Of a stretch of DNA of 63,265 bases, positions 37,173 to 62,841 are shown one piece after another. A program made the translations under genes and the position numbers. The notes under the pieces were generated by a model. It was not told the origin of the DNA. It saw only the letters and a list, made by a program, of their open reading frames with translations, and did no database searches. The DNA is from Candidatus Uhrbacteria bacterium (GTDB lineage Bacteria > Patescibacteriota > Patescibacteriia > UBA9934 > UBA11717). The DNA lies in NCBI GenBank assembly GCA_018701105.1, contig JABIWD010000062.1:1-63265 (forward strand), in the 5' to 3' direction. Position 1 is the stretch's first letter; each line of letters opens with the position of its first letter.

Positions 37173-38132
37173 ATGGCGGAACCAGATAAAAAGTTTGATC
37201 CCCAAGCCAAAGCCGGTCAGTTCAACACCAATAGAATCGCAGATGCGGTTCGTAAACGAGCGGGACGAGCGATCGAGTCCAAGATACAGACAGGGAGAGA
37301 AAAAGTTCAAGGACTTGGACAGCAGGCAGAGTCTCGTCTACGGGAGTTCGCGGGTGGCGGAGATCAAGAAGAATCAGAAGATGGTGAATCACCTTCAGAA
37401 CGAGGTGATTATTCTGCTAGGCTAAAGAGTCTGCGCCAAGGAAATTATCGTGATGCTAGTCCTGAATACGCAAAACTAAGGGGTGGCTTAGACACTTTCG
37501 AAAGAGAGAATCCAGAGTTTTCAAAATACGCCCGCAAGAAAATTCTACAGGCTCAAGAAGACGGTGATCTAAGAAAGACCGCCGAAGGCATAGGAGAAGA
37601 TGCTGAAGCTCTGAAAGCTGTAATTGAAGGTAAGTCCTTACTTGGAAAAACTAAGCTTTACTTAAAAGCCTTCGAGTACGGCTGGAAAGTTGCTGCGAAG
37701 CTAGACAAAAATATAAAAAAAGGAGGTCAAGCGTGGTGGATACTAGTGGTTGTAGTAGCGGTATTCAAGGACGTGTTCGACATGTTGATAACGTTTTTAA
37801 GCATACCGCCGCTACCAACTGCCCTGTTTGGTCCAACGACGGATACCGTGATCTCGATACTGTTCTTCGCATTCTTTTTAAGATTCCTCTGGGGAAAAGG
37901 CACCTTTATTTTCAGAATGATCCTGAAACGAATTGGACCGTCTTTCTTGATCGAAGCAATACCGGGAATGGCTTTTATTCCATTCTTCACCATCACTATC
38001 ATATATGCTTGGTGGAAAACCAATAAAATCCAAAAACAGTTACGCTCGGCTCGTGCCAAGCTTGGAAAGGAACTGAATGAGCTTGAAGAAAACAAACCAA
38101 AGATGATAGGCAAGAAAATGTCTAGATACTAG
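37173..38132 (+). CDS. hypothetical membrane protein
   Basis: 319 aa. The N-terminal half is charged and soluble. The C-terminal half has 3-4 TM helices. Confidence 0.6.
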   Translation: MAEPDKKFDPQAKAGQFNTNRIADAVRKRAGRAIESKIQTGREKVQGLGQQAESRLREFAGGGDQEESEDGESPSERGDYSARLKSLRQGNYRDASPEYAKLRGGLDTFERENPEFSKYARKKILQAQEDGDLRKTAEGIGEDAEALKAVIEGKSLLGKTKLYLKAFEYGWKVAAKLDKNIKKGGQAWWILVVVVAVFKDVFDMLITFLSIPPLPTALFGPTTDTVISILFFAFFLRFLWGKGTFIFRMILKRIGPSFLIEAIPGMAFIPFFTITIIYAWWKTNKIQKQLRSARAKLGKELNELEENKPKMIGKKMSRY

Positions 38133-38246: not shown

Positions 38247-39476
38247 ATGACATTCCGAATGCAGAAAATATTGGTCGTGACAGGATTTATTCTTGTCGTC
38301 GTAGCGTTCGCACTCGGGCTATACTTTGTGTTCTTTAAGGCTCCAACTGGACCTGAAGAAGTGTCACCAACGATCACGGAAGAAGGAACGGAACCTGGCG
38401 CGCTTCCTGGAACAACGGAAGCAGGCGACAGAACTCTGATAACTCCAGGAGAAGGCGAGCTTCCAACTCCAGAGCCCTCCCCTGTCGCAATAGGAGGACC
38501 TACAGAAGTTGGAGCACTTACCCTAACCGGTGTCACCAATCCATCTCTCGGAGCCGATGGCCGGTCACTCAACTTTTATGACCCAGCGGATGGAAAGTTT
38601 TACGCGGTGGACAAAGATGGTAACCGATTCGCATTGCTCCCAACAGAATATCCTGATGTAGACAACGTGGTTTGGAGCCCAGATGGCAGGAATGCTGTCG
38701 TGGAGTTTCCTGATGGCGCCAACATCGTGGTCGATTTTGCAACCGGCGACACTCACACGCTTCCACAACATTGGGAGGACTTTGATTTTTCACCAACCGG
38801 AGAGCAATTGATATCAAAGAGTATCGGAGTCGACCCTGGAAACCGCTGGCTCGTGATCTCGAATCCTGATGGATCGGGTGCAGATACGATCGCAGCACTT
38901 GGACGTAACGCGGACAAGGTACAAGTAAGTTGGTCACCAAACGACCAAGTTGTCGCCTTTTCAGACACCGGTGCGCTTACAAGTGGCTTTGGGCGCAAGC
39001 AGATGCTGGCGATCGGAAAGAACCAAGAAAACTTCCCAGGTATTGTAGTCGAAGGGTTTTCTTTTGAACCAAAGTGGAGCGAAGATGGATCACGCCTCCT
39101 ATACAGCACCCACGGACCCTCAAGCAACTACCAACCACAACTATGGCTTGTAGATGCACAGTCCGACACTCTTGGAGAAAATCGTCGTAGCGTAGCACTG
39201 AACACCTGGGCAGATAAATGCACATACTCAAACGCGACGATAGTATATTGCGCAGTTCCCCAGAGTCTTCCAGAAGGGTCAGGACTGCAAAGAGCGCTTG
39301 CGTTTGGAAAGCCCGACACGATCTACCGGGTCGATACCGATACAGGTATGACCGTGGTCGTCGGAACGCCAGAAAACCCAACGAGCATGTCCAACCTCAA
39401 CGTGAGTGATGACGGACGTACATTGTTCTATCAAAACGTATTGACCGGCACCCTACAACAAATTCAGGTGAAATAG
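38247..39476 (+). CDS. membrane-anchored TolB-like beta-propeller (PD40 repeats)
   Basis: N-terminal TM, Pro/Glu/Thr linker, then repeated WSPDG/FSPTG/WSPND/WSEDG motifs typical of PD40/TolB blades. Confidence 0.75.
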   Translation: MTFRMQKILVVTGFILVVVAFALGLYFVFFKAPTGPEEVSPTITEEGTEPGALPGTTEAGDRTLITPGEGELPTPEPSPVAIGGPTEVGALTLTGVTNPSLGADGRSLNFYDPADGKFYAVDKDGNRFALLPTEYPDVDNVVWSPDGRNAVVEFPDGANIVVDFATGDTHTLPQHWEDFDFSPTGEQLISKSIGVDPGNRWLVISNPDGSGADTIAALGRNADKVQVSWSPNDQVVAFSDTGALTSGFGRKQMLAIGKNQENFPGIVVEGFSFEPKWSEDGSRLLYSTHGPSSNYQPQLWLVDAQSDTLGENRRSVALNTWADKCTYSNATIVYCAVPQSLPEGSGLQRALAFGKPDTIYRVDTDTGMTVVVGTPENPTSMSNLNVSDDGRTLFYQNVLTGTLQQIQVK

Positions 39477-39479
39477 GAT

Positions 39480-40118
39480 ATGCATAATAAATTGCTATTA
39501 CTGATACTCGGAGCGCTCGCAGGAACAATCTTGTTGGTGTTCATTATCGTTGTCATCCCTGAAAAGTCACTGCAAACGCAAGAAATAGAGAGTGTCCCTG
39601 AAAAGCTCACGGAACCTCCGATTAGTTTTATAGACCCAATGCGAGGCAACCCTAAGGCAAACGTCACTATCATCGAATATGGGGACTTTGATTGCCCACT
39701 TTGTAAAACTGTTGAACCAGAACTCGTAGCCCTAATTGCCGAAGAGCCCAATAAGCGACGACTGGTTTGGAAAGATGCACCAAACGAAACAGCTCACCCC
39801 AACTCGTTTGTAGCCGCCATGGCAGCACGCTGTGCACAAAATCAAGGCCTTTTCTGGGATATGCACGACAAGATGATGCAGCAAGGCGTCGGGCTTGGTG
39901 CAGAGAACATAAAGAATATGGCAACCGAAGTTGGTTTGAATATTTCTGCTTTCGACAACTGTATGTCTTCGGAAATCACCCGGCCAGTCGTAGAGCACAC
40001 GCTGGACGAAGCAGTTGCTCTAGACCTAACAGGGACACCGACGATCTTCATCAACGGAGTTGAATATACAGGACCACTGACAAAGGATGGACTAACACTT
40101 GCGATTGAGGCTCTATGA
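39480..40118 (+). CDS. DsbA-family thiol:disulfide oxidoreductase
   Basis: N-terminal TM anchor, CPLC active site in IIEYGDFDCPLCK, C-terminal GTPT(I)FING cis-Pro loop. Confidence 0.85.
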   Translation: MHNKLLLLILGALAGTILLVFIIVVIPEKSLQTQEIESVPEKLTEPPISFIDPMRGNPKANVTIIEYGDFDCPLCKTVEPELVALIAEEPNKRRLVWKDAPNETAHPNSFVAAMAARCAQNQGLFWDMHDKMMQQGVGLGAENIKNMATEVGLNISAFDNCMSSEITRPVVEHTLDEAVALDLTGTPTIFINGVEYTGPLTKDGLTLAIEAL

Positions 40119-41467
40119 TGAGACGAGCGTTGATAATATCTTCCCTGCTAATCTTTTGTACCCTTTTAGCGGCCCCAGTTGCCATGGCGCAGGAAGAGAG
40201 CAAGAAGAAGAAAGTGGACGCGATTCCAATAGAGTATCAAGTTAATATTCCAGGGCTTGGTGACGAGGCGCAAATCGTATATGGTCCAACAGGTGGCTGC
40301 CCAGTTGACCATGTTTGCGTACGCACCATATCCTCCTACATAAACGCGTTTTATAAGTGGAGTGCGTCTGCTGCGATTATAATGGCCATCATTATAATAA
40401 TGATCGGTGGTATCGAATATATGATCGGATCGGCAGTTGGTACTATAGAAAAAGCAAAGGACCATATAAAAAATGGAGTGATTGGTCTTCTATTGGTCTT
40501 TTCAACGTCCGCAGTCCTGTCATTCGTGAACCCAAATATCACTCAAATAAGCGCAATGGAGCTACCCGCTATTGAAACGGTGTTCGTTACATCAGAGAAT
40601 ACAGATCAAGATAACGCCGATCCCGATCCTGGTAACCCTGGGCAAGTTGGCCTTCCACCGGTCACGACATCAAGTAACCCTCAAAAATTAGCCCTTCAGC
40701 CTTCAGGGTCTAATGTAACAGTGCCGAGCGCTCGACCGGCAAAGCAAGTTCCCGTGAATGAAGTGGTTACAGCGCCCACGGTCCCCTATTACAACCAAAG
40801 AAGCTACAGCGATGTTTACGGCGGGTGCGGCACTATCAAATCTTCTGGGTGTGGCCCAACATCCGCAGCAATGGTGCTCAGCTATCTGGAAGTCAATGCA
40901 GATCCACCAAAGGTTGCAAGCGCCTTCGCTGCTGACGGATTTAGAGCATGCCCCAAAGACGATGAGGGGAAGCCAATCTGTGACAAATGCAACGGTACAA
41001 ACTGGGGAGCGTTCACCTCCTCAAGTATTGTCACAGACAACAATCTAGTTGGCAGACAAATACAGGCAATCAACAGAAAAGAGATTCTATCACTCCTCTC
41101 AGCAGGAAAACCGCTTATTGCGTCAATGGGTTGTAGTCGTTTTACTAGGTATGGTCACTTCGTAGTGCTTACCGGAATGAATGCTGATGGTACAATTGCC
41201 GTGAACGACCCTAATAGCACATCACGGAATCAAACCACGGCAAGTGAATTATGGGAGGAAGTGTACGTGACCGCAGATGGAAAGCGTGACTGTACCCAGA
41301 GGGGTAACAGAGCAGCCCTTAAATCGGTCTGGCTAATTGAGTCAAAAGACGCAACGTCTAGAAATACGGAACTCGACGAAGAAGACATCTGGCCGAACGA
41401 CCACCTTCAACTAGCAAGTTCCTTCTTACTCGACTCGGTGAAGAACTTTGTACCTAAACCGCTATGA
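40115..41467 (+). CDS. T4SS-pilin-like (VirB2/TrbC-type) N-terminal module fused to a C39-like cysteine peptidase domain
   Basis: Signal peptide, then the pilin-like two-helix segment AAIIMAIIIIMIGGIEYMIGSAVGTIEKAKDHIKNGVIGLLLVFS. The C-terminal domain has YYNQ...SGCGPTSAAMVLSYL and GHFVVLTGMNADGTIAVNDPN, a papain-like Cys/His pair. ATGA overlap with dsbA. Confidence 0.7.
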   Translation: MMRRALIISSLLIFCTLLAAPVAMAQEESKKKKVDAIPIEYQVNIPGLGDEAQIVYGPTGGCPVDHVCVRTISSYINAFYKWSASAAIIMAIIIIMIGGIEYMIGSAVGTIEKAKDHIKNGVIGLLLVFSTSAVLSFVNPNITQISAMELPAIETVFVTSENTDQDNADPDPGNPGQVGLPPVTTSSNPQKLALQPSGSNVTVPSARPAKQVPVNEVVTAPTVPYYNQRSYSDVYGGCGTIKSSGCGPTSAAMVLSYLEVNADPPKVASAFAADGFRACPKDDEGKPICDKCNGTNWGAFTSSSIVTDNNLVGRQIQAINRKEILSLLSAGKPLIASMGCSRFTRYGHFVVLTGMNADGTIAVNDPNSTSRNQTTASELWEEVYVTADGKRDCTQRGNRAALKSVWLIESKDATSRNTELDEEDIWPNDHLQLASSFLLDSVKNFVPKPL

Positions 41468-42813
41468 GAATACGAAGCATAATCCTAGCGCTACTGATCG
41501 CCCTCCCCCTAATCACACCAGGGGCAGTCTTTGCTGCTGCATCCACTCAACCAGAAGTAATCGCACCACAACTCCAAGTTAACATCCCAGGATTAGGAGA
41601 GGATGATTTTAAAGGTAGCGTGATTGTTGGAACAAACCAAACACGCGAGCAGTGTACTCCTGGAAAAGTTTGCGTTGGTACAATATCAGTTTATCTGAAT
41701 GCGGTTTTCAAGTTCATGGTTACTGCGGGAATAATCTTCAGTATCGTGATCATAATGATCGGCGGAATTGAGTACATGGTGGGGTCGGCCTCTGGCTCTA
41801 TCGAAAAAGCAAAAAAGCACATAACCGGTGCGGTAACTGGACTCGCGCTACTTCTTGCCGCGACTTCGATAGTGACATTTATTAATCCAGATATATCCGG
41901 ACTTCGGTCACTAGAACTTACTATACTAAAAAATGTCCCGTACGCTCCAAAAACCGACGTGAAAGAGACCGCGTTTGGTACAGCTGTAAAAACCGACTTA
42001 CTTGGAGCTGACGGAGAAATGTTTAAAGGCGGGCTGCCAGTCAAAGACGCTGAAGGTAACATCGTAGATGACATCATGCTAGGAAATGGGTCAGATAACA
42101 TTTGGATGCACGAAAAAGCAATCATCCGTTTACAGGCGGCAGCTGGCCAGCTGAACTCCCAGAATACTGGCGATGTGAAGCCACATAAACTGGAATTACT
42201 TCAGACATATATATCGCCTCAAAAGGCAGCGATCAAATTTATTGAAAAATGTGTATACGACAACTGTTCACAAGACCCTTACTGCAACCCATTCCCTGAT
42301 GGTCAGGTAGTCGAAGGAAGTTACACTGATGGATTCACGCTCACATCTGCTATCAAGGAGGAGAGCAAGGACATGAAGAACGAGGAGTTCTATGCCCTAG
42401 TTGGCCAACAAGCACTCTTAAACGACACTCCCAGGTGCCCTTTCCAAACCGGATTCGCCGTCGCCGCAGTTTGCTATGGTGACTCTGTCAACAAAGCAGA
42501 CGCTGAATGCCAGAAAAAGCTTGAGAAGGTCATGAAAACTAACAACTTTTGCAGATCTGTAATGCATCCGTGGCTTTACGAATTCGAAGGCAAGCAAGTA
42601 CTTGATTCTACAAAGGGCTGTGAGGCTCCACCTGGAATCATGCTTATGCCAGAAGCAAACGAGACCTTCTGGAATAAATGCAACTCTTCACATACTTTTT
42701 CCTATACAGGCGACGGTACAGTGCTCTGTGCTAGAGAGTATGGTGATGCTTGTTCTGACGCAGGAGTGCGAACAAAGGATAATGTTGACTTAACTACAGG
42801 AAGATGCGACTAG
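41464..42813 (+). CDS. T4SS-pilin-like N-terminal module fused to a Cys-rich extracellular domain (possible degenerate M15/VanY-like fold)
   Basis: The N-terminal about 130 aa are clearly paralogous to 40115..41467 (IIMIGGIEYMVGSASGSIEKAKKHI). The C-terminal about 260 aa contain about 14 Cys. ATGA overlap with the previous gene. Confidence 0.65.
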   Translation: MRIRSIILALLIALPLITPGAVFAAASTQPEVIAPQLQVNIPGLGEDDFKGSVIVGTNQTREQCTPGKVCVGTISVYLNAVFKFMVTAGIIFSIVIIMIGGIEYMVGSASGSIEKAKKHITGAVTGLALLLAATSIVTFINPDISGLRSLELTILKNVPYAPKTDVKETAFGTAVKTDLLGADGEMFKGGLPVKDAEGNIVDDIMLGNGSDNIWMHEKAIIRLQAAAGQLNSQNTGDVKPHKLELLQTYISPQKAAIKFIEKCVYDNCSQDPYCNPFPDGQVVEGSYTDGFTLTSAIKEESKDMKNEEFYALVGQQALLNDTPRCPFQTGFAVAAVCYGDSVNKADAECQKKLEKVMKTNNFCRSVMHPWLYEFEGKQVLDSTKGCEAPPGIMLMPEANETFWNKCNSSHTFSYTGDGTVLCAREYGDACSDAGVRTKDNVDLTTGRCD

Positions 42814-44119: not shown

Positions 44120-44209
44120 GTCATTCTGAGTGGCAACGTAAGAATCTCATCGTTCTAGAGCGCGCTCCTGGCATTATGAGATCCTCACGTCGTTCCTCCT
44201 CAGGATGAC
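44120..44209. repeat. MITE/REP-like element, copy 3 (reverse orientation of copy 1)
   Basis: GTCATTCTGAGTGGCAACGTAAGAATCTCAT (44120-44150), 25-nt spacer, ATGAGATCCTCACGTCGTTCCTCCTCAGGATGAC (44176-44209). The right arm is the exact reverse complement of 6273-6306. Confidence 0.85.
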
Positions 44210-45746
44210 AAAGAACACTGAAACTAATCTTACTATGAATATCTTTCAAGAAAACAAATATCCAGTGATACAAGGAAACGAGAAGGCTTCGACCGGTTTT
44301 TGTACCGTTTGGAATCAGGCCGATGTTGCCATAAAAGCGTCGCCAGAGCTTCTTGAGAAGGCTGCCATTGTAGGAACTCTGTATTCGCGTCAGGGAGTGA
44401 ACGTGGTTTTACGGAACCTCGCACTCAATCCGCATATACGGACCCTCGCACTCTGGGGGCACGGTCCTCTTTCAAATACTCCTTTTGGCACGAGTGGGAC
44501 CGATATCTTGAAAGCTCTCTGGAAAGACGGGGTGAACGACGACTCGACCGTGATCGGAACCTCGTTCCAATTGGAACAAGAGATCGATATTGAGGTCGTT
44601 CGGAAGATGATCACGAAAGTTGAACTTTTCGATCTGTCTGAACACGATTTGTGTACAGCCGTTTCAAAGATCGAGGCGACATCGTCTATGCCATACATGG
44701 ATTCAGTAGACTTCCCTCCTCCTGTCCCGCAAGAAATCTCTACGCTGCCATCAGAGAAGATCGGCTTCACAGTTCACGGCAACACCGTACTCGAAGCTTG
44801 GCGCAAACTCGTTTTTCACATTATGCGATACGGAACTGTTAAAGGTTCGCAGTACGGAATGGAACAAAAGGAATTATTGTCGGCACAATGGGTGATTCAC
44901 AATGAGCCATGCTTGTTCCCGCAAGACATACCCGAGGACTGGCCAGATCAACTCAAGGAAACTATCGGCGCTACGAGTGCAGCTATCGAGCAGTATCACG
45001 ATGTGTTCCTGAGTGCGAAAACAAAGGAGGGCGTGGCGTACACTTACGGCTCACGACTTCGCGACTGGAAGCTCGGCGATCATGTGGTCGACCAGGTCAA
45101 AGATGGACTCATCGCAAACCTAACATCGAGCCCAGACTCACGTCGTGCAATTGCAACTACACTGATCCCAGCGCAAGATGCATCTTCCAAGTCTCCTCCT
45201 TGCCTGATATCTGTACAGTGCATACAGAGCGAAGGTAAGCTAAATATGATAGCTTCTTTCCGTAGTCACGACATTTTCAAGGCAGCGATCCCGAATGCGT
45301 TCGGATTAATCGCCATGCACCAGGAGGTCTCGGACGCCACAGGATTCGAGCGCGGCTCACTCTGCATTCAGTCACATAGCGCGCACGTGTACGAAGGTGA
45401 CTTTGAACATGCAGAGAAGTTGATCAACTGCTCATACCTTGAACGTGATCCTGCGAAGGTATTTGATGCAATGTTCAGTGACAAGCGCGGAAGTATCGTC
45501 ATCCGAGTTGAGGATCGCGAGATCGTAGCCGAGCATCACACCGGTGACGGCGCGTTGATTGCAGAATACCGAGGAAGCTCGGCGCGTGATCTGACGTTAA
45601 AGCTCGGACATCTCAATATAATCTCACAAGTTTCCCATGCTCTCGACATTGGTATGGAGTTACAAAAAGCCGAGCATGCGATGAAGCTCGGACTTACATA
45701 CAATCAAGATAGACCGCTGCAGATTCAAATAAAAGAGGTGGTGTAG
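44205..45746 (+). CDS. thymidylate-synthase-fold protein (archaeal-type ThyA-like core) with extra N- and C-terminal domains
   Basis: The core SRRAIATTLIP...SPPCLISVQC...FRSHDIFKAAIPNAFGL...SHSAHVYE aligns by eye to ThyA motifs RR.I / PPC / (Y)QRS.D / P.N / H.Y. ATG 44205 lies inside the repeat arm, so ATG 44235 is an alternative start. Confidence 0.7.
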   Translation: MTKNTETNLTMNIFQENKYPVIQGNEKASTGFCTVWNQADVAIKASPELLEKAAIVGTLYSRQGVNVVLRNLALNPHIRTLALWGHGPLSNTPFGTSGTDILKALWKDGVNDDSTVIGTSFQLEQEIDIEVVRKMITKVELFDLSEHDLCTAVSKIEATSSMPYMDSVDFPPPVPQEISTLPSEKIGFTVHGNTVLEAWRKLVFHIMRYGTVKGSQYGMEQKELLSAQWVIHNEPCLFPQDIPEDWPDQLKETIGATSAAIEQYHDVFLSAKTKEGVAYTYGSRLRDWKLGDHVVDQVKDGLIANLTSSPDSRRAIATTLIPAQDASSKSPPCLISVQCIQSEGKLNMIASFRSHDIFKAAIPNAFGLIAMHQEVSDATGFERGSLCIQSHSAHVYEGDFEHAEKLINCSYLERDPAKVFDAMFSDKRGSIVIRVEDREIVAEHHTGDGALIAEYRGSSARDLTLKLGHLNIISQVSHALDIGMELQKAEHAMKLGLTYNQDRPLQIQIKEVV

Positions 45747-53094: not shown

Positions 53095-53796
53095 TCAATT
53101 CCCTCTGGCAAAAGTAACGCCCCAAACAACCTCAACACCGGACCTCTTAAGCTCGCGTGCCACCGCCGACATGGTCTTCCCTGTCGTATAGACGTCATCG
53201 ACGAGAATGACGTTCGGCGGAACGATAATATTTGTGTTCACCTCAAACACCCCATCAAAAGATCGCTCAGCTCTTTTTTTATCACTCAAGCTAGCCTGAG
53301 GCTTCTGAAAATGCCGAGCCCGCTTTACAAGATTCAGTTCAAGATCGATCCCAAGCTCCATCGCTATTATACGAGCTAGCACAATGCTCTGGTCAAACCC
53401 ACGCGCTCGAGCTCGCATCGGATGTAGCGGCACGGGCACGATCACCCAGTTCTTACTCGGAACTTGCTGCGTCGCATTGAGCCACTGAGACAAGATCGAG
53501 CTTATGTGGGGCTCGGCCTCGCGTACAAAGCGATACTTCCATAGTCTGACTAGTTTTTTTGAAAGAATATTCGCATACCACGTCGCACTAACAACGCCAT
53601 CGAGCGAATGGTCGTAATGCTCCGAACATCGCGCGCCATAAGTCGTGATCGCGTCGCACCCGGGACAGTGCTGAGGATACCTGCAAACAAAAACAGCGCG
53701 ACATTCTACACACAAGAGGAATCCGTCGCGCTGGCATTTTATGCACTGCTGGGGGAAAATTGCATTGCGTAGTCTATGTATCCACTTTAATTCCAT
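53095..53796 (-). CDS. comF: ComF family protein (phosphoribosyltransferase-type)
   Basis: N-terminal Cys clusters (C.KC...C.EC, CPGC), C-terminal PRT motif VILVDDVYTTGKT. Overlaps the upstream gene by 10 nt. Confidence 0.85.
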   Translation of the reverse strand: MELKWIHRLRNAIFPQQCIKCQRDGFLLCVECRAVFVCRYPQHCPGCDAITTYGARCSEHYDHSLDGVVSATWYANILSKKLVRLWKYRFVREAEPHISSILSQWLNATQQVPSKNWVIVPVPLHPMRARARGFDQSIVLARIIAMELGIDLELNLVKRARHFQKPQASLSDKKRAERSFDGVFEVNTNIIVPPNVILVDDVYTTGKTMSAVARELKRSGVEVVWGVTFARGN

Positions 53797-54351: not shown

Positions 54352-56418
54352 TTAATTGTCTAGTGATTGTTCTAATGCTGCCCCCTCTTCTGCTATTCCT
54401 GACTCGATTTTAGACTTCTCTGCATCCTTATCAACTACTCCCGCCTCCGTAGCCTCTTTATCTTCTAATTCTCCCTCGAACTCACGCCGCTCACCCTCCA
54501 TCTCAAGCAACTGCTCTGGGTTCGTGGTCACAATCTTGTCTTCCAAATAACTCGCCACCACCTGAATAGCGGCGTGCTTGTTTCCTGCAAAGAAGATTCC
54601 CTGTCCAATACCCGCCTCAAGCAAGAGATATTTCTCTGCATCTGTGAGGTTAAACGTCTTCTGAACCAAGTCAACAGCAGCAGGCGACTGCTTCATGAGC
54701 AACTGCATGCTCGAGTTCGTCACGATCGCCTGTCCATACTGGTTCCTAAGGAAGTCATTCACATCCTGTGTAATCGTCTGAACTCCCAAGAAGTACTTAC
54801 GTCCACGCTTCACAATCGCAAAGATAAATCGCGCCGAATCCTCGTGTTGCATCAACCACCACGCCTCGTCGACTACTAGCAGCCGCTTCTTTCGAGTTGA
54901 TCGAACAACGTTCCAAATGTAGGTAATAATGTTATAAATTGCCATCGGTCGCAGCTCATCCTCCAAATCTCGCACAGAGAAGATCACCAACTGGTTGCTG
55001 GTCTCCACCGTCGTAGGCGAGCTAAAGAGCCCTGCGAATGTTCCTTCCGTGTATTTCTTGATACGCGCAACTAGACTGTCTGCACCGGTCATTCCCTCTA
55101 GAACCTCCTGCAAGTCTTGCATCGTAGGTGGCTCAACCTTAGCGAGGTCACTTTGCGGTGTAATGTCCTTTTTTGCATATGACTCCAAAATCGCACGATC
55201 CAGCACAGCGTCGTCTTCAGGCGAGAATCCAAGAGCCCCCGTTGAACCCTGCGGAGTTCCCATCATGATTCGCATCAAACCTTTGATTGTGATAACAGCA
55301 GATCGGATTATATCCTCAACGCTCGCGTCCGATGTAGTGGCACGCGGAAGATCGAATGGGTTGATCTTACTATCAGACGCCAGTGAGACGTTCACGTATG
55401 TTCCACCAACAGCATCTGAAAGCGCCTTGTACTCCATTTCTGGGTCGATAACGATGACGTCAACGCCAAGCATCATCGATCGGATGATCTCAAGCTTCAC
55501 AGCGTAACTTTTTCCAGCTCCAGATGTAGCAAACACAACTCCGTTCGCGTTTTGCAAACTGAACCTATCAAACAATATCAAACTGTTGTTGTGTCGATTT
55601 ATTCCGTACAAGATTCCGTTATCACTCGTGAGCTCTGACGAGATGAATGGGAAACTCGACGCAATCGGACTTGTACTCATGTTGAATGTGATCTGCAACT
55701 CGTCGTTTCCAAGTGGTAACGTTGAGTTGAATCCCTGCTCGGACTGATACAGTCCACGCTTTGTCATGATCAACTTCGCTCCAAACGAAGAATCAATATC
55801 ATCACAAACACGATCAAGCTCTTCCTTATCCTTTGCGTACACCGTTACATAGAAAGCAAACTGGAAGAAATGCTCAATACCTTGCGTGAGCTGGTCTCGC
55901 AGCCCCTCAATGTCTCGCAACGCAGTCTCGCGTAGTGGGTCTCGTGGTTTTCCTTTCTGACGATCCAGTGAAAGCTGAGCTTCCACCTCTCCAGCCTTTT
56001 TCTTGAGTTGCTTCAAAATGATAGCAGCCTCAATTGGATAGAAGTACATTGAAATATCTATCGTCCAGTTGAAGTTGATGATACCTGCGGCCCAACCGAC
56101 TCCAACATAACGAGGGTATCCAACAATGAACAACGTGCGCGCATATTGATCTCCGAGCTTAAGAAAACTCGATGTAACTTCAAAAGACGCCGGAGCAATC
56201 AGGTCGCGAATTGAAACAATTCCACGCTGATAAATCCGCTCTTCTTCAAGAAGGGAGCGAACACTCTCCTGCTCTTTCTTGTCAGCAATCTGCTCCTTCT
56301 GCTTCGCTGAGAGCTTCTTAGGAGCCTGCGGCTTTCCAGGTGTAGCAGGCTTTTTGCTCTTGCCCTTCTTTCCTTTGCCGTCTTGTTCGTATTGCTCAAT
56401 TTGTTTCTCAAAAGCCAT
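54352..56418 (-). CDS. VirB4/TrbE-type type IV secretion ATPase
   Basis: 688 aa. Walker A FATSGAGKSY, Walker B RLLVVDEAWWLM, ITQD motif. Lys-rich N-terminal tail. Confidence 0.9.
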   Translation of the reverse strand: MAFEKQIEQYEQDGKGKKGKSKKPATPGKPQAPKKLSAKQKEQIADKKEQESVRSLLEEERIYQRGIVSIRDLIAPASFEVTSSFLKLGDQYARTLFIVGYPRYVGVGWAAGIINFNWTIDISMYFYPIEAAIILKQLKKKAGEVEAQLSLDRQKGKPRDPLRETALRDIEGLRDQLTQGIEHFFQFAFYVTVYAKDKEELDRVCDDIDSSFGAKLIMTKRGLYQSEQGFNSTLPLGNDELQITFNMSTSPIASSFPFISSELTSDNGILYGINRHNNSLILFDRFSLQNANGVVFATSGAGKSYAVKLEIIRSMMLGVDVIVIDPEMEYKALSDAVGGTYVNVSLASDSKINPFDLPRATTSDASVEDIIRSAVITIKGLMRIMMGTPQGSTGALGFSPEDDAVLDRAILESYAKKDITPQSDLAKVEPPTMQDLQEVLEGMTGADSLVARIKKYTEGTFAGLFSSPTTVETSNQLVIFSVRDLEDELRPMAIYNIITYIWNVVRSTRKKRLLVVDEAWWLMQHEDSARFIFAIVKRGRKYFLGVQTITQDVNDFLRNQYGQAIVTNSSMQLLMKQSPAAVDLVQKTFNLTDAEKYLLLEAGIGQGIFFAGNKHAAIQVVASYLEDKIVTTNPEQLLEMEGERREFEGELEDKEATEAGVVDKDAEKSKIESGIAEEGAALEQSLDN

Positions 56419-57103
56419 ATGATGTATCCAAATCTAACTCTCCCGCATTTTTTAAAGGCTGTGCCTCGGAAACTATCGGGTTGTAAGCGTTGTAATAAAG
56501 CTCAATCAAGCCCTGAGTGTCCAAGCGAGCTCCAGAGAGGCCCATGCTATTCAAGCTACCAAGAGCCTGCGCCATGCGCTGTTCTAGTTCCTGCTGCCGT
56601 ATCTTGAACTGTTTTTCCGAAAGTTTAATACGCGAGCCGGGAGTCAGTACTGCGCCAAGTCGTGTAAAGAAACCTTTCTTGTCGCTCGCCAAGGGATCGA
56701 AAGGCACCACGATGAAGAAGCGCTTACTCATAATCTCACTGTCAGACACAAGGTCTTTTATGAAATCGATGTAATCCGTCATCTGATTCCGCAGCAACTC
56801 GTTCTCCAATTCCGAGCTTGCCTGCCTCATCCTTCCAATGTAATCCTCGATTCGCATTCTTCGTGAATGAATCACAACCTGCAACGGGTAATCGAGACCA
56901 TTCAAAAACTGCATGTACGCCTGAATCACCGCCTGCTGCTCGTCGTTAGACTTCAGTGCAAAGTTGATACTCGAAACAATCGCGACTCCACGTACTGATC
57001 CATCTTTCAGAATCACCATGTCGTCACGAATTTCTGAGATATCCAAATACTTCTGCGTCGCAGGTCGTTTGGCTTGAACTAGTTTTTGTTTTTTCTTTGC
57101 CAT
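56408..57103 (-). CDS. VirB4 N-terminal-domain-like protein (separate ORF)
   Basis: 231 aa from ATG 57103. YLDISEIRDDMVILKDGSVRGVAIVSSINFALKSNDEQQAVI resembles the extreme N-terminal region of Gram-positive-type VirB4 ATPases. 11-nt ATGGCTTTTGA overlap with the ATPase gene. Confidence 0.6.
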   Translation of the reverse strand: MAKKKQKLVQAKRPATQKYLDISEIRDDMVILKDGSVRGVAIVSSINFALKSNDEQQAVIQAYMQFLNGLDYPLQVVIHSRRMRIEDYIGRMRQASSELENELLRNQMTDYIDFIKDLVSDSEIMSKRFFIVVPFDPLASDKKGFFTRLGAVLTPGSRIKLSEKQFKIRQQELEQRMAQALGSLNSMGLSGARLDTQGLIELYYNAYNPIVSEAQPLKNAGELDLDTSYGF

Positions 57104-57104
57104 A

Positions 57105-57545
57105 TTATTTTTCCGCCTCATCGGGCATATACACTCCACCGGTGTTCACGACTAGAGATAGGTCTCTTAAGTGCGAACCGCTCAGTGGTGGCTTTCTATA
57201 CGGAGGAGGTGGAGGAGGTGGTTCTTTTCTGTTCATCATTGCTTTGATCTCTGCATCTGATCGATTCTTACTCCAAACCCTGATAGAAGGGCGGCGTAAT
57301 GTCTGCAGATAGTTCAACATTATGTAGTGAAATGGCTGTCCATGAATTCTTACAAAAGCAATCACTAAGGAAATTGCAGCGGTTGGGATAGCGAAGACCA
57401 GGAACAGAGAAAAATCGAAAAGTCGATTCTGAATAACGATTATTAGCCCCGCAACCATGATAGTCACAAACTGTCGCACCGTGATTGGTCCGATAATCTT
57501 ACTCTCCACGTCTAGAAATTGTGGGATAACAAATTGATCTGCCAT
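57105..57545 (-). CDS. PrgI-family (VirB3-like) membrane protein
   Basis: IPQFLDVESKIIGPITVRQF followed by two TM helices. Poly-Pro in the C-terminal tail. Confidence 0.7.
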   Translation of the reverse strand: MADQFVIPQFLDVESKIIGPITVRQFVTIMVAGLIIVIQNRLFDFSLFLVFAIPTAAISLVIAFVRIHGQPFHYIMLNYLQTLRRPSIRVWSKNRSDAEIKAMMNRKEPPPPPPPYRKPPLSGSHLRDLSLVVNTGGVYMPDEAEK

Positions 57546-57562
57546 AAACCTATTTTATCACA

Positions 57563-59476
57563 CTAGTAGCGCAGGGTACTGTTAATTCTACGCACAACGT
57601 CAATCTCCTCTTTAGTCATTCCCTTAGGATTTCTCTTTGCATCCTTAAGCACCGATTCTATTGCGATACCTTCTTGCAAAGCCATCCCCATGAGCTTCTG
57701 GTACATCATGACCAATGGGCTCTCTCTCCACGCCTCAATAGCGCGGATCCGCAATCCAGGATCCCCTTCTCCTAACATGTTAATGTCCTCCATCAAGTTC
57801 TCTTGAACAACGCTAATGTCTCCCGGCAATCGTCGGAAGTCGTCGATGTTCATTCTTCGAAACTCTTCAATCGGTCCAACAAGTCTCTTCTTGTACCTAA
57901 CATCTGTAACTGGCTTTTTTCCTGATGGAGTAACTCGTGGCGCCATCGATGGAGTGGACAATACAGTTTTCGCCGTAGACTTCTTTTGTGAGACAGACTT
58001 TGATGCACTGGCACCTAACGCCGGACTCGAGCTCGACTTTGGATCTTTCGATGAAGGTGCACCGTACTTCTCCTGTTTCTTCTTAACCATCTCCTCCTTG
58101 CCCGCCTTGTGTTTTGCAACGGCATCACCATGCTCTCCCGATATTGATGTCTCAACCTCTTCAACAACACGATTCACCGCATGCTCAGACAGAGCAAGTC
58201 CACCTTTCTCAATAGGTTGTTCGAGAGCCTTCTTGAAATCCGCAGCCGACCTTACACCGGAATATCGCGCGCCCAAAACCACTCGAAACCTCTTATTGAG
58301 CTCGGACGATGGAAACGATAGTGATAGCTTTCGCTGCACCTCGTCAATTTTCTTATTCTCTAAACTCTCAGGAGCCTTTTGCCCTGTTTTCTTAAGATCC
58401 TGCATTGTAGACGCAGCGGCAGCCTCATTGGCGACATTCGGGAACAGCTCTTTCTTCACTGCAACGGGCGCCCTTTTCTTTGGCTTCACAACGACCTCGC
58501 TCTTTCGTCTCAATGATTTCTTTGCCTTAGGCTGAGCTGGCGTAGGCTTAACATCAGTTTCCACCTCAACGTGACTTGTTACCATTGGACCAACGTCCTT
58601 CTTTGTTGCTGGAGGTTCCGCATCGACGATCATCGGTGGTGGCGGAGCGAGCTCACGCTTTTCACCTTTTGACGCCGGGTGCATTTTGTCCAACTTATCA
58701 TCGTACCGCCTAACAACCTTCACAACCTTCGGCTCTTGTCTTTTTGGCAAAGACGGCGGCACTAGCGGCTTCTTTGCCGGTACCGGCTTTACGGCAGGCT
58801 TCACCGGCGGTGTCTTTTGTACAGGCACCGATGGCGGCGCAACTGCAGCCTTTGGCTTCACAGGAGCTTCAACAACTCGAGCTACTGGAGCTGGAGGTGC
58901 TACTTTAGGCTCTGGCGTTGGAGCGGGTGGTGGTTTGGGTGCAGGCTCAGCTTTCACCGGCGCCTCAACCTCAATCTCCTCGTCAATCTTTTCCACGACC
59001 TCGGGCTCGTTAACCTTTTCCCTCTCCCGAGACGCCGCCTGCGCTCTCTTAACCTTAACCTCGGCAACAGCAATATCGTTCGCCTTTCTAATATCCTTCA
59101 CAGTTCCACCCGTTGCATCGATTCTCTTTACAGTCGAAACAGATACGTCTCCACCTAAATTCGCATATGTACGGAAAGCCGATGACATCATGTACGAGTC
59201 GATTGGCAGGAACCTCGTACGCAAAAGATCCAGTGACACTTTGCGTGCCAACGGAGCTTCTAGGCCAAGTTTAACTCGAATCAAATTCTCGACTGAATCT
59301 AACGCAGCGTAACCAAACAATAATTCTTGTTGAATGTCATCGAGTCCGTCCACCACTGTAGTGGAAAGACCGTACGCCTCACCAATCTGATCCAGATCTT
59401 TAAGCCCGGAGTCCAAGAAGAACTCACGAATCTCATCGGGCAATATACTGTAAATATATATATTTTCCTCCGCCAT
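57563..59476 (-). CDS. hypothetical protein with long Pro/Lys/Val-rich central region
   Basis: 637 aa, no TM noticed. Sits between the polytopic membrane gene and the prgI-like gene. Confidence 0.7.
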   Translation of the reverse strand: MAEENIYIYSILPDEIREFFLDSGLKDLDQIGEAYGLSTTVVDGLDDIQQELLFGYAALDSVENLIRVKLGLEAPLARKVSLDLLRTRFLPIDSYMMSSAFRTYANLGGDVSVSTVKRIDATGGTVKDIRKANDIAVAEVKVKRAQAASREREKVNEPEVVEKIDEEIEVEAPVKAEPAPKPPPAPTPEPKVAPPAPVARVVEAPVKPKAAVAPPSVPVQKTPPVKPAVKPVPAKKPLVPPSLPKRQEPKVVKVVRRYDDKLDKMHPASKGEKRELAPPPPMIVDAEPPATKKDVGPMVTSHVEVETDVKPTPAQPKAKKSLRRKSEVVVKPKKRAPVAVKKELFPNVANEAAAASTMQDLKKTGQKAPESLENKKIDEVQRKLSLSFPSSELNKRFRVVLGARYSGVRSAADFKKALEQPIEKGGLALSEHAVNRVVEEVETSISGEHGDAVAKHKAGKEEMVKKKQEKYGAPSSKDPKSSSSPALGASASKSVSQKKSTAKTVLSTPSMAPRVTPSGKKPVTDVRYKKRLVGPIEEFRRMNIDDFRRLPGDISVVQENLMEDINMLGEGDPGLRIRAIEAWRESPLVMMYQKLMGMALQEGIAIESVLKDAKRNPKGMTKEEIDVVRRINSTLRY

Positions 59477-59505: not shown

Positions 59506-62256
59506 TTAGACTTCAGCCTGAGCTACGACTCGTCGCTTCATGTGACGGATAGATCCATCAAGCTGCTTGATCATAGCCTTTGATCCTCCTGAACGCTTCA
59601 ACTCTGCCCTGTAGTTCTTAAGAAGCTTCTCCGATGCCTTGATAGTAGATTTCCATGTCTCCTCATTTGGAGATCCCTTCGCCTGGTTCATGGATGCAAG
59701 CATCGCATCAAGAGACTTAGGTGTAAGACTTTCCGCGGCAACAGCCGCCATGTCTCCGCTCATATTCTCCATCTCAGCACTAAGATTAACAATCATGGTT
59801 GGGTTCTTAGCAAAATCTCCTGCGAAAACTCGTGCATCCTTTGGCGATGCAAACTCGTTACGCATAGCCGTCCCAGAACTGTCGTAGTTGTATGAGGAGT
59901 CTGGATTTCTTGTCATCACCGTTCTAGCAGCCTTATTGATACTCGTATCAGTTCCTCCGGCCGCTGCATCTGCACTATGAATAGCACTCTCCACTTCTCT
60001 CAGCATCTGGTTTGCTCTTGCCTTCTCTTCCTTATTACCGGAAGTAGCCGTCTGCTCCAACGCCTGTATCATCTGAGCGCTACCCTTCTCTTTCAATGCC
60101 GAAACGATAGCCCGCCGTACCTCGTTAACGGTGTCACCAGCAGCACCAGCACCGGCGCCACCAGACATGCTCTTACGAATAAGCTCCGGCATGTCAATAT
60201 CTCCCATGGGCATTCCTCCTCCAATAATGGAGCCCATAGTTCCGGAAATATTGGCGTTAACTAGACCGTGAATAGCAGCATCACTATTCGCACCATCTTT
60301 ATTCGCTGCCAGATTCATGTCCAGCCCACGTTGACCGTCCACCGCATCCTGATAACGATCCTGTTCTTGCTTGTCTCGCCGCTTCACATCCGGTGTAGCA
60401 TTGATATGCTTTTGAGCCGCATCAATAAAGTCTTTCTTAGCTCCCTTACGCGCAGAATTCCTGGTTTCCTTATCAGTATCAAACATCTCATCATACACCC
60501 CGGAGTCACGAGCAGCCTGCCTGAAGTGCGAGGAACCCCATGCGCGCTTATCAATGCCCGCTCGCTCTTGCTGCGTCATGCCTTCAAGAGCCTTTTGCAT
60601 ACTCGCCGCATCCGTATTCTCCCACTGAGGGTTACTTGCCAACATCTTCTTTATCTTATCCTGCCCCTTATCATCATCTGTATCCTTCTGATGTTTCTGA
60701 ACATCCGCAAGCATCTTCATGGCCCTAGCCTTAGTGCTTGGGTTTTCCATCATGCCAGCAAACGCGCCCTCATCTCCAACTGTTGCAGACTGAAGAGCCA
60801 TAGCTTGAGCACGCTGCTCTTCCGTTGCCTTTGGTCCTGAATATTTTTCTATAAAGTCTAACTTCTGCTGATCACCAAGCTTGCTACCAAACCCAGCATA
60901 TTTCTTCGCGAGATCGCCCTGGATTGAGTTCTCCTTGCGCTCTTCCTCAGCAACCTTAGCAAGCTGGCCACGTCCAAACATTCCGCGGACTCCGCCAGCT
61001 GCGATATTCTGTTCCGCTCTCTTTTTCTGCTTCTCTCGTGCAGCCAAACGCCTCTCCTGCGTTCTTCCACGGTAAAGGCTCGAAACTCCTCCGGCCACTG
61101 CAGCACCAGCTGCTCGCCCTTTCTGAACTCCCTTACGCCCAACTGCCATCGCTCCCGCTCCTGCCAACGCAATAGGTGCTCCTGCAATCTTCTTTCCAGC
61201 AGACAATCCAGCGCCAGCAATGCTCTGCGCCGCTCCACCCAAGCTTCCCGCAGTAGACACAGCCATCTCCAAACCAGCCAACAACAGTGCGATACCGATA
61301 ATGAATCCTGTGAAGTTGTCATTTGTGACAATAGAGTTGTTGATCACAGCTCCTGAAGGAGGTGGGTTTCTGTTTGTATCGAAACCTTGAGTCATTCCAC
61401 TCACGGACGCCAACGCCAACCAAAGGAAGAAAGTCAGAATAGGGCCAATCATGATAGCGGCGGTCAACTTCCCCCACCACTGACTATACATATCACCCGC
61501 TTTAGACAAAATCCCCTGCGCGGCTCCTGCCAAGAAAGCGGCAGGCGACAAGATGATAAGCACCCATAGAACAACGATTCTATATACGAGCACCCCGGCC
61601 AGTGTAGCTATCACAACCAAAACTATGGCCGACATTACCGCGGCCATCATCGCTGAACCCAAGTTGGACGCTCCATCAATCGTAAGACTTCCGTCCACTT
61701 GAGTCTGAAGATCGCTCAACTTAAGCAATTGCAAAAAATTTCCAACACCAACCTGCTGCAGAGCGTTCACGAAGCCAATCATTACCACCTGCCCGATATC
61801 AATGAGCAGTCCCGTAATAAGACGAGAAAAATTGATAGCAATAGCTGCAACAACTAGTCGTGGAATTTGCTGCGTCCAGTTGATTCTTTGAATGCCGAAC
61901 ATTGTCCCGAAAGCAATCACGAGCATCAATACAATGAACCCTGTGTTCACAAGGTCGCGGACAATTGACCATCCATTCAGCACAACCGGGTGGCCAATAA
62001 AGTCAGAGTACTGAACAATAGGAAGTAAGATCAGCTCAAGGAGAACCAGAATCATAGTCCCCAAGAAGTTCGCTACCACGAGTATAACTCTCGCGAGAAG
62101 ATTCAGGATAACGTTTCCAGAAGCCGCTAGTCCATCCGCCAAGCCTTCAGTCACAAAGTTCGCGCTAACAGGATCCGCAGCGAATACCAAAATGAGCACG
62201 GACAACCCTGCTATTGCAACTTTGAAGAAACGCTTGTAGTTTTGCCAAGCTTTCAT
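59506..62256 (-). CDS. large polytopic membrane protein (VirB6/TrbL-like candidate) with about 550-aa hydrophilic C-terminal region
   Basis: The N-terminal about 370 aa hold at least 8 hydrophobic helices. The rest is Ala/Gly/Lys/Asp/Met-rich. ATG 62256 is preferred over the track TTG at 62268. First gene of the operon. Confidence 0.75.
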   Translation of the reverse strand: MKAWQNYKRFFKVAIAGLSVLILVFAADPVSANFVTEGLADGLAASGNVILNLLARVILVVANFLGTMILVLLELILLPIVQYSDFIGHPVVLNGWSIVRDLVNTGFIVLMLVIAFGTMFGIQRINWTQQIPRLVVAAIAINFSRLITGLLIDIGQVVMIGFVNALQQVGVGNFLQLLKLSDLQTQVDGSLTIDGASNLGSAMMAAVMSAIVLVVIATLAGVLVYRIVVLWVLIILSPAAFLAGAAQGILSKAGDMYSQWWGKLTAAIMIGPILTFFLWLALASVSGMTQGFDTNRNPPPSGAVINNSIVTNDNFTGFIIGIALLLAGLEMAVSTAGSLGGAAQSIAGAGLSAGKKIAGAPIALAGAGAMAVGRKGVQKGRAAGAAVAGGVSSLYRGRTQERRLAAREKQKKRAEQNIAAGGVRGMFGRGQLAKVAEEERKENSIQGDLAKKYAGFGSKLGDQQKLDFIEKYSGPKATEEQRAQAMALQSATVGDEGAFAGMMENPSTKARAMKMLADVQKHQKDTDDDKGQDKIKKMLASNPQWENTDAASMQKALEGMTQQERAGIDKRAWGSSHFRQAARDSGVYDEMFDTDKETRNSARKGAKKDFIDAAQKHINATPDVKRRDKQEQDRYQDAVDGQRGLDMNLAANKDGANSDAAIHGLVNANISGTMGSIIGGGMPMGDIDMPELIRKSMSGGAGAGAAGDTVNEVRRAIVSALKEKGSAQMIQALEQTATSGNKEEKARANQMLREVESAIHSADAAAGGTDTSINKAARTVMTRNPDSSYNYDSSGTAMRNEFASPKDARVFAGDFAKNPTMIVNLSAEMENMSGDMAAVAAESLTPKSLDAMLASMNQAKGSPNEETWKSTIKASEKLLKNYRAELKRSGGSKAMIKQLDGSIRHMKRRVVAQAEV

Positions 62257-62272
62257 GAGATATTTCAAAGGT

Positions 62273-62379: not shown

Positions 62380-62769
62380 TCATCGATTATCAATTTGACG
62401 AGGCGCTCTGCGCTTGGCCTTTTTGTTCCTCATGGTTTGTATTACTTTGCCAAATATCCTGGATAACTCGAGCGCTTCCTGTATAAGCTCCACCTGAATC
62501 TGCGCATTATCAACCTCCGCCACAATACACTTCAACCAGTATCTAGACTCCTTCGCTTCCTTTCTGCATATATTTATTCTGTAAAGAAAATCCTTTCCGC
62601 TAAACGATTCATTGGCCTCAATATAGTTCGCGCCAACCGATCCCGACGATCTGACCAACTGCTTAATATCTTCTTGATAAATCGAATGTCTCGGAATCAA
62701 CTTAACAAACTCTCTCACCTTCCGACTAAATGCCAAAGCCCTCTCCTCAAGCCCCTCTTGTTTTGTCAT
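62380..62769 (-). CDS. four-helix-bundle protein (23S rRNA intervening-sequence protein family)
   Basis: SSGSVGANYIEA, KDFLYRINICRKEAKESRYWL hallmark motifs. Start taken at ATG 62769, because the track TTG start at 62805 lies inside the inverted repeat. Confidence 0.85.
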   Translation of the reverse strand: MTKQEGLEERALAFSRKVREFVKLIPRHSIYQEDIKQLVRSSGSVGANYIEANESFSGKDFLYRINICRKEAKESRYWLKCIVAEVDNAQIQVELIQEALELSRIFGKVIQTMRNKKAKRRAPRQIDNR

Positions 62770-62803
62770 AGTTCTCGTTAATTGATCAATTGGTAAATTT
62801 CCC

Positions 62804-62841
62804 AATCAATTGAAAATTGCCGAATTGCAAAATTGAAAATG
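62804..62841. repeat. right 38-bp inverted repeat flanking the four-helix-bundle gene
   Basis: AATCAATTGAAAATTGCCGAATTGCAAAATTGAAAATG. Perfect partner of 62327-62364. Confidence 0.9.

Follow-up and report, generated by a model that had tools for sequence, protein, structure and literature searches.

The 63,265-nucleotide contig JABIWD010000062.1 of a Candidatus Uhrbacteria bacterium, an ultra-small organism belonging to the candidate phyla radiation (CPR), is referred to here, at its full length, as the window. It encodes two adjacent open reading frames (ORFs), designated ORF A and ORF B, in which a VirB2-type pilin module is fused to a large C-terminal domain. From the identity of these C-terminal domains, and from those carried by the same module in other CPR genomes, the two products are moderately likely to be wall-peptidase-type proteins that are tethered by their VirB2 module and serve the CPR type IV secretion system (T4SS) as an equivalent of VirB1 or PrgK. 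Identical database proteins identify the pair as the hypothetical proteins HOI83_04610 (ORF A) and HOI83_04615 (ORF B), which assigns the window to the Patescibacteria/Parcubacteria group. The two genes and their parts are located as follows.

40115..41467, + strand: ORF A, 450 amino acids (aa); signal peptide, VirB2-like hairpin, disordered linker, Peptidase_C39_2 domain and short C-terminal tail
40115..40186, + strand: ORF A signal peptide, aa 1-24, ending ...PVAMA/QEE, assigned from hydrophobicity
40319..40525, + strand: ORF A T4SS_pilin domain, aa 69-137; first transmembrane helix, Lys-rich loop, second transmembrane helix, ending in FVNPNIT
40544..40780, + strand: ORF A linker, aa ~144-222; rich in Pro, Ser and Thr, with predicted disorder and a conserved F-V-T-S-E-N-T motif at its start
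40781..41344, + strand: ORF A papain-fold C39_2 domain, aa 223-410
40796-40798, 40850-40852, 41156-41158 and 41207-41209, + strand: codons of the ORF A catalytic residues Gln228, Cys246, His348 and Asp365, respectively
41464..42813, + strand: ORF B, 449 aa; signal peptide, VirB2-like hairpin, linker, degenerate VanY/M15 (LAS)-type domain and Cys-rich tail
41677..41883, + strand: ORF B T4SS_pilin domain, aa 72-140
42079..42732, + strand: ORF B degenerate LAS-type (VanY/M15-like) domain, aa 206-423
42436-42465, + strand: ORF B motif CPFQTGFAVA (CPHxxGxxVD in the family)
42565-42576, + strand: ORF B motif HPWL (ExWH in the family)

Pilin modules of ORF A and ORF B

An initial annotation, made from the sequence alone, had described both proteins as a signal peptide and a paralogous N-terminal module that is extended by additional C-terminal residues, and each part of this description was upheld. 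Hydrophobicity supports a signal peptide in both cases, with the Sec signal peptide of ORF B ending ...AVFA/AAS. A BLASTP comparison aligned residues 35-181 of ORF A with residues 31-192 of ORF B at 41% identity (E 2e-26), while the remainder of the two proteins is unrelated. The assignment of the module as a pilin had been set beforehand as a test, to be decided by the T4SS_pilin model (PF18895). Both proteins exceed the Pfam curated cutoff of 26.6 bits, ORF A with 32.7 bits (aa 69-137) and ORF B with 30.6 bits (aa 72-140), and weak matches to TrbC/VirB2 and to the Mbov_0395 pilin-like NCBIfam model lend further support. A hidden Markov model (HMM) made from the fused modules also detects the short, free-standing pilins encoded in a T4SS array of Saccharibacteria. 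By a family HMM able to detect such distant free pilins, no further pilin modules are present in the 63-kb window.

In both proteins, the signal peptide is followed by a segment of approximately 45 residues that contains an invariant Cys pair, and then by two hydrophobic helices that are joined by a Lys-rich loop. The module closes with an F(V/I)NPxI(T/S) motif. AlphaFold2 places the helices of the hairpin at residues 70-104 and 110-138 of ORF A and at residues 78-110 and 113-140 of ORF B. Some 300 residues lie beyond the second helix in each protein, which places both outside the class of small pilins. In ORF A, the module is followed by a linker of roughly 70 residues, for which the predicted local distance difference test (pLDDT) score of the model drops under 50 over aa 151-161 and again over aa 167-219.

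A short conserved motif was observed directly after the module, with the form F-[VI]-[ST]-[ST]-E-[ND]-T-x-x-D in the pilin-C39_2 fusions (ORF A aa ~149-158, 40559-40588) and D-[IT]-S-[PK]-E-T in the LAS fusions. It might act as a packing strand or mark a site of processing.

In the NCBI gene model, HOI83_04610 has a length of 427 aa because translation is taken to start at Met24 of ORF A (40184), which excludes the signal peptide. A start at 40115 is better supported because it is preceded by an upstream GAGG, it overlaps the stop codon of a DsbA-like gene, and the homologue P0002 begins at the equivalent Met. The overlaps are of the ATGA type and occur twice, between the DsbA-like gene and ORF A (40115-40118) and between ORF A and ORF B (41464-41467). 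A scan for promoters and terminators performed no better than shuffled controls; the operon structure rests on these overlaps and on small intergenic gaps.

The papain-fold domain of ORF A

The C-terminal domain of ORF A had been annotated initially as a C39-like fold with a Cys and His dyad, and both the fold and the dyad were confirmed. Peptidase_C39_2 (PF13529) matches aa 223-367 with 58 bits against a cutoff of 24, and Peptidase_C70 also scores above its own cutoff. The Peptidase_C39 model (PF03412) falls below its cutoff (17.6 versus 22 bits). Across 19 homologues, no substitution is seen at Gln228, Cys246, His348 or Asp365, nor in a Cys238/Cys279 pair. Within ORF A, Cys246 is located in SGCGPTSAAM and His348 in GHFVVLTG.

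The domain was modelled with a pLDDT of 85-95, and a Foldseek search with ORF A identified a C39-like peptidase from Bacillus anthracis as the top match (PDB: 3erv, E 1e-4). Further matches included papain-like interbacterial toxins (CdiA-CT 8ssk/8ssm and 9l5u), SpeB, the C39 domain of PCAT1, and cathepsins. In a profile of the domain, the Cys, His and Asp of ORF A align with those of 3erv and of 6mpz, a true double-glycine protease domain, and are correctly placed with respect to these solved C39 structures. Direct sequence searches of the PDB with ORF A, ORF B, or the ORF B family profile returned nothing useful. Judged by its conserved residues, ORF A is apparently an active cysteine peptidase.

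The nearest relatives of the ORF A domain that do not contain a pilin module are proteins of 570-690 aa in which C39_2 is combined with a Lysozyme_like/SLT, 3D or DPBB domain. No SLT or lysozyme glycosidase domain was found in ORF A or ORF B by Pfam, while one is present in the relatives P0024-P0035. One relative without a pilin module, P0030, is encoded in a monoderm conjugative cluster, where its gene has that of a VirD4-like coupling protein on one side and that of a VirB4 ATPase on the other; a thioester/SpaA adhesin is encoded beside it. The same slot between the coupling protein and VirB4 is held by PrgK in pCF10, TraG in pIP501 and CwlT in ICEBs1. Peptidase_C39_2 has also been counted among the catalytic domains of endolysins from phages of Gram-positive bacteria (PMC8223927). 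In BFVD, the viral structure closest to the ORF A model was the tail tape measure protein of a myovirus (A0A8S5TG17, E 2e-9, 357 aligned columns), which suggests that phage tape measures may combine a similar helical segment with a C39-like lytic domain.

The degenerate LAS domain of ORF B

When ORF B was submitted to Pfam alone, no match to the C-terminal domain was obtained. A word-indexed homologue search with a profile of this domain added no sequences, and an exhaustive search was required, from which 270 clusters were recovered at E <= 0.001. Among the matches listed, 115 of the 149 family members contain a pilin module. A His/Asp/His set is found at three motif positions in 137 of 153 relatives, together with conserved Arg, Gln and Glu residues. 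A Pfam scan of 99 family members assigned T4SS_pilin to 68, VanY to 35 (best 8e-12), Peptidase_M15 to 28 and Peptidase_M15_3 to two. Compared with a profile of 123 distant members, all of them outside the seed, ORF B scored 96 bits (E 1e-31). The family motifs match the SxHxxGxAxD ... ExxH signature of the VanX/VanY-type LAS zinc peptidases.

In an alignment of close relatives, most display CPHxxGxxVDxWC and ExWHFE, whereas ORF B has CPFQTGFAVAAVC and HPWLYEFE. The ligand columns of ORF B are occupied by F327, A334 and L371, the Glu is replaced by H368, and the Arg is replaced by Ile. By sequence, ORF B would thus be a true member of the VanY/M15 (LAS) fold and, since all of the catalytic residues are replaced (H/D/H to F/A/L), a catalytically dead pseudoenzyme. 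Only ORF A of the pair is likely to be an enzyme. The earlier proposal of two enzyme-like domains is therefore retained for ORF A, which is apparently active, and withdrawn for ORF B, which has lost its catalytic residues. What had been described as a 14-Cys domain needs a similar adjustment: ORF B does contain 14 Cys, of which only 12 are found beyond the pilin module, and the domain itself is a degenerate VanY/M15 homologue.

The Cys-rich tail of ORF B (aa ~386-449, 42619-42810) was modelled with very low confidence. In the active relatives, the tail presents a conserved C..DYS.C...CC.D..G.CCDG...C pattern that is possibly a small disulfide-knot module.

Pilin fusions in other CPR genomes

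A scan of species-representative genomes identified 27 loci. The scan was made with a narrow alignment of the pilin module, hence with a bias towards close relatives; a broad alignment was too diverse for locus scanning. In two other genomes, the same gene order recurs as in the window: ClpB, a membrane protein, a PD40 propeller, DsbA, fusion 1, fusion 2, RadA, RecG, ComF and VirB4, with other genes between RadA and RecG and between RecG and ComF. The two fusions of each are compared below.

Window: fusion 1, C39_2; fusion 2, degenerate LAS (F/A/L)
L001: fusion 1, a different domain with Cys and His motifs and a sub-threshold match to NlpC/P60; fusion 2, degenerate LAS (F/V/L)
L003: fusion 1, an intact VanY-like domain; fusion 2, degenerate LAS (Y/A/L)

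The type of cargo in the first gene differs in each of the three genomes, and the second gene always encodes a degenerate LAS domain. The P0016-type cargo found in the sister genomes has no match in the PDB and scores below threshold with NlpC/P60 (best E 0.027), and is at most a probable NlpC/P60-like domain; its DCSG...GD..G...GHI motifs are presumably comparable to those of NlpC/P60. A degenerate LAS domain occurs only as the second gene behind a putatively active enzyme, and the single LAS fusions that were checked, those of L006, L010 and L013, keep their catalytic residues.

Many metagenome-assembled genomes (MAGs) of Uhrbacteria, Parcubacteria and Patescibacteria encode the module with 200-480 extra residues. 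The loci of Gracilibacteria and Saccharibacteria encode short free pilins of 104-187 aa, which in L027-L030 stop 2-8 residues beyond the module. Among the long fusions, further cargos were Peptidase_M23 (two loci), Peptidase_M15_4 (one locus) and Amidase_2 (three loci, one with a weak match to NlpC/P60). Every identifiable cargo of the pilin module is a peptidoglycan hydrolase, and several cargos have no family assignment.

In most of the long-fusion loci, DsbA is encoded directly 5' of the fusion, and the order PD40-DsbA-fusion-RadA-RecG holds even at loci whose orthologues share no more than 35-50% identity. A comparison of the window with L001 gives 83-88% identity for the PD40, RadA, RecG and ClpB proteins, 62% for the pilin module and 60% for the orthologue of ORF B. 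The cargo of ORF A is wholly replaced in L001.

Some of the loci with a CPR-type cassette (L005, L006, L008-L010, L016, L020, L023 and L026) belong to GTDB representative records titled 'uncultured Gammaproteobacteria' that resemble Patescibacteria in gene content and in a chromosome of about 1 Mb. These titles probably reflect a labelling problem.

Gene neighbourhood

The window is chromosomal and mainly composed of housekeeping genes, including gyrB, nusG, L1, thyA, folA, dnaE, pheST, thrS and ddl. An origin of the pair from a mobile element or phage was considered and rejected because the base composition is even across the window and the neighbours are housekeeping genes. In the 5' direction from ORF A, the genes for ClpB, a multi-pass membrane protein, a PD40/TolB-like propeller and a DsbA-like protein are arranged in this order towards the pair; in the 3' direction, ORF B is followed by radA, a thymidylate-synthase-like fusion and recG. 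The T4SS genes are found further downstream.

37173..38132, + strand: multi-pass membrane protein located before the cassette; no Pfam match, fast evolving
38247..39476, + strand: membrane-anchored PD40/TolB-like beta-propeller with a PD40 repeat match; first conserved gene of the cassette
39480..40118, + strand: membrane-anchored DsbA-like thiol oxidoreductase with a CPLC motif; Thioredoxin_4, 97 bits, and DSBA, 58 bits
42831..44108, + strand: radA, conserved 3' neighbour; synteny reported in PMC12102498
44205-45746, + strand: thymidylate-synthase-like protein with PterinBD-DUF4346 and a weak MtrA-like N-terminus, 513 aa
45799..47853, - strand: recG, conserved neighbour
53095..53796, - strand: comF-like phosphoribosyltransferase, adjoining the T4SS genes
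54352..56418, - strand: VirB4-like T4SS ATPase; P-loop_TraG, 82 bits, AAA_10 and DUF87
56408..57139, - strand: T4SS-associated ORF with no family; a homologue of 46% identity lies beside the short-pilin array of Saccharibacteria locus L030
57105..57545, - strand: PrgI/VirB3-like T4SS protein; PrgI, 34.1 bits versus a cutoff of 27
59506..62268, - strand: 920-aa ORF of the T4SS cluster; a weak homologue (23% identity) lies beside the L030 pilin array

The virB4 and prgI genes are separated from the fusion pair by approximately 11.5 kb, or about a dozen genes, and the same arrangement is found in L003, where the VirB4-like ATPase has an orthologue of 84% identity. In a published survey of CPR T4SSs, a pilin was considered to be near virB4 when it was within +/-20 coding sequences, a range that includes the fusion pair. 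The same survey reported synteny of virB4 with comF, recG and radA for Magasanikiibacteriota (PMC12102498). The PD40 propeller is 83% identical in L001 and 74% identical in L003, and its position is kept in more than 12 loci.

Several other features of the region were observed. The multi-pass membrane protein at 37173-38132 is 35% identical in L001, compared to 83-88% for the flanking genes. The thymidylate-synthase-like gene at 44205-45746 is a second ThyA-like gene beside the canonical thyA (8488-9306), and its position after radA is kept in L001 and L002. Three large ORFs have no Pfam match: 15482-17854 (+ strand, 790 aa), 57563-59476 (- strand, 637 aa) and the 920-aa ORF at 59506-62268 (- strand). 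The latter two lie on either side of the VirB3/VirB4 genes. An ORF at 62380-62805 (- strand), where the T4SS cluster ends, belongs to the 23S rRNA intervening-sequence protein family (PF05635, 42.9 bits).

Proposed function and alternatives

A VirB1/PrgK-like role in remodelling of the cell wall, as first suggested in the initial annotation, is supported by the peptidoglycan hydrolases that make up all identifiable cargos elsewhere, by the lysozyme/SLT and C39_2 relatives in the VirB1 slot, and by the VirB3/VirB4 genes that are nearby in the published synteny. On this reading, the pair is translationally coupled and exported, and each cargo would be presented outside the cell on a long flexible linker. 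The module would contribute two membrane helices and, between them, a short loop in the cytoplasm that is rich in Lys; its two termini would lie outside. It may bring the enzymes to the VirB3/VirB4 machinery, where the fusions would act either as subunits tethered to the membrane or as pilus subunits of a minor or terminal kind. From its domain identity, we infer that the papain-fold cysteine peptidase of ORF A would cut peptidoglycan stem peptides locally for the T4SS or pilus, opening the wall where the apparatus or pilus must pass. ORF B would most likely bind or position the substrate, or regulate its active partner, and the disulfides of the Cys-rich ectodomains are probably formed by the DsbA-like enzyme. 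The fusions may in this way supply the VirB1 function that is missing in most CPR genomes with VirB2.

Several points weigh against this assignment. The pair is located 11.5 kb from virB4 amid housekeeping genes, and the cassette is kept with ClpB, RadA and RecG and not strictly with T4SS genes; thus, the hairpin could be a mere anchor for general remodelling of the wall. Canonical C39 peptidases cut proteins and not peptidoglycan. The ORF B model is of low confidence overall (mean pLDDT = 55.6, with a core of 70-88), and its Foldseek matches are weak (E 0.28-3.2), although those ranked 1, 2, 4 and 5 are LysB4, LysECD7, ChiX and the RB49 L-Ala-D-Glu peptidase, all of which are M15 enzymes. Finally, a homopolymeric filament of the VirB2 type would not easily accommodate a cargo of approximately 300 aa on each subunit.

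A second explanation, possible but held with considerably less confidence, differs from the VirB1/PrgK-like role only in the target. An epibiont would present the fusions on its T4SS pilus, or deliver them with it, as weapons that cut the peptidoglycan of the host bacterium, either to open a conduit or to lyse the host, with the cargo fitted to the chemistry of the host wall. Replacement of the cargo at the same locus among close relatives (C39_2 in one, a domain that is probably NlpC/P60-like in another, and an active LAS domain in a third) is in keeping with this idea, and the lower identity of the pilin module and the ORF B orthologue relative to their neighbours is a pattern typical of host-interaction proteins. 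The fold of ORF A resembles papain-like interbacterial toxins and a phage tail tape measure protein; however, a toxin-like structure is generic to the papain fold. Southlakia, the one CPR species tested, cannot grow as an epibiont without its T4SS and the pilins of this system. On the other side, no immunity-like gene adjoins the pair, and the cassette is chromosomal, conserved and syntenic across deep divergence. With respect to the target, rapid swapping of cargo and fast divergence favour a host-facing role, and the conserved chromosomal cassette and absence of an immunity gene favour one that is structural or directed at the cell itself.

A bolder form of the host-facing role is rather unlikely, and slightly more so than the weapons just described. 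The fusions would be true subunits of a 'lytic pilus' whose surface or tip presents swappable wall-cutting enzymes and a dead substrate-binding partner, and which drills through the peptidoglycan of the host. If this were true, the type of cargo would set the host range and would be swapped under selection.

It is improbable that the pair performs housekeeping remodelling of the wall that is unconnected with the T4SS, in which case the hairpin would have been co-opted as a bitopic membrane anchor and the cassette would serve growth or division of the cell's own wall. The cassette does accompany ClpB, RadA, RecG and the thymidylate-synthase-like gene and not T4SS structural genes, it includes a TolB-like propeller, and degenerate LAS/LytM-type partners such as EnvC and NlpD regulate division hydrolases. 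Nonetheless, the module is a true homologue of the free pilins from T4SS arrays, virB4, prgI and comF are within approximately 12 kb both here and in L003 in a synteny published as T4SS-linked, and rapid swapping of cargo would be unusual among core division enzymes.

A role for ORF A as a protein-processing protease in the maturation of pilins or secreted substrates, in the manner of TraF/TrbC or of a double-glycine peptidase, is very improbable: although leader-peptide cleavage is the canonical C39 role, C-terminal processing of VirB2 and TrbC pilins is known, and the domain has weak Peptidase_C39 and Peptidase_C70 matches and aligns with 6mpz, the Peptidase_C39 score is below its cutoff, no ABC transporter partner is present in ORF A or the cassette, peptidoglycan hydrolases are encoded at the corresponding place in the sister genomes and elsewhere among CPR, and the closest relatives are fused to lysozyme-like/SLT domains in the VirB1 slot. 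Self-cleavage of ORF A at a double-glycine site was also considered and rejected; the linker contains no GG.

Comparison with known systems

The closest counterparts of the pilin modules are the VirB2-like arrays of Patescibacteria, for which the T4SS locus of Southlakia epibionticum SEML1 and the 'Sec secreted array' of TM7x provide comparison pilins (Quinonero-Coronel 2025, Wang 2023). The CPR T4SS survey likewise described tandem arrays of small VirB2-like pilins. These arrays and the ORF A/B pair share PF18895, a signal peptide with a two-helix hairpin, an organization as tandem divergent paralogues, and a location on a CPR chromosome where virB4/prgI are close by and the radA/recG/comF synteny is found. 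In contrast, the free pilins that have been described are approximately 100-190 aa in length and end soon after the second helix; ORF A and ORF B are longer by about 300 aa.

Like the VirB1-type hydrolases (PrgK of pCF10, TraG of pIP501, CwlT of ICEBs1 and TcpG), ORF A is a membrane-anchored, extracytoplasmic Cys/His peptidase of a papain-like clan. It differs from them by having no glycosidase domain, C39_2 in place of CHAP or NlpC/P60, a pilin hairpin in place of a single helix, and a gene that is approximately 12 kb from virB4. The known Peptidase_C39_2 proteins, namely 3erv and the endolysins of Gram-positive phages, agree with ORF A in HMM match, fold and catalytic residues; however, they are soluble single-domain proteins or endolysins, and none has been reported with a pilin module. 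Phage tape measures and virion-associated lysins similarly join a polymerising or helical membrane-active module to a lytic domain for crossing the wall. Their machinery is different, and the likeness to ORF A is at the level of structure only.

For ORF B, parallels may be drawn with EnvC, NlpD and DipM, which are dead regulators of the LytM/LAS type. Their metal ligands have been replaced as in ORF B, and the ORF B gene always lies beside that of a putatively active hydrolase. ORF B differs from these factors in its VanY/M15-type, not M23-type, domain and in its fusion to a pilin module. A regulatory role by this likeness would be only an analogy.

Significance

The CPR T4SS, the PF18895 pilins and each of the hydrolase families are already known. 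The CPR T4SS literature that was searched describes small pilins only; no fusion of a pilin to a hydrolase, no pairing of active and dead enzymes and no DsbA/PD40 cassette was found there. A simple signature, PF18895 followed by more than 200 residues, would permit a census of such fusions.

CPR/Patescibacteria are host-dependent, and the means by which their T4SS crosses a wall is of interest. Most CPR genomes with VirB2-like pilins do not encode a VirB1 wall hydrolase (PMC12102498). With a hydrolase built into the pilin itself, ORF A and its relatives may provide an answer to how the wall is breached without a classical VirB1. The swappable cargo, the dead partner and the dedicated DsbA bear on both wall breaching and host specificity.

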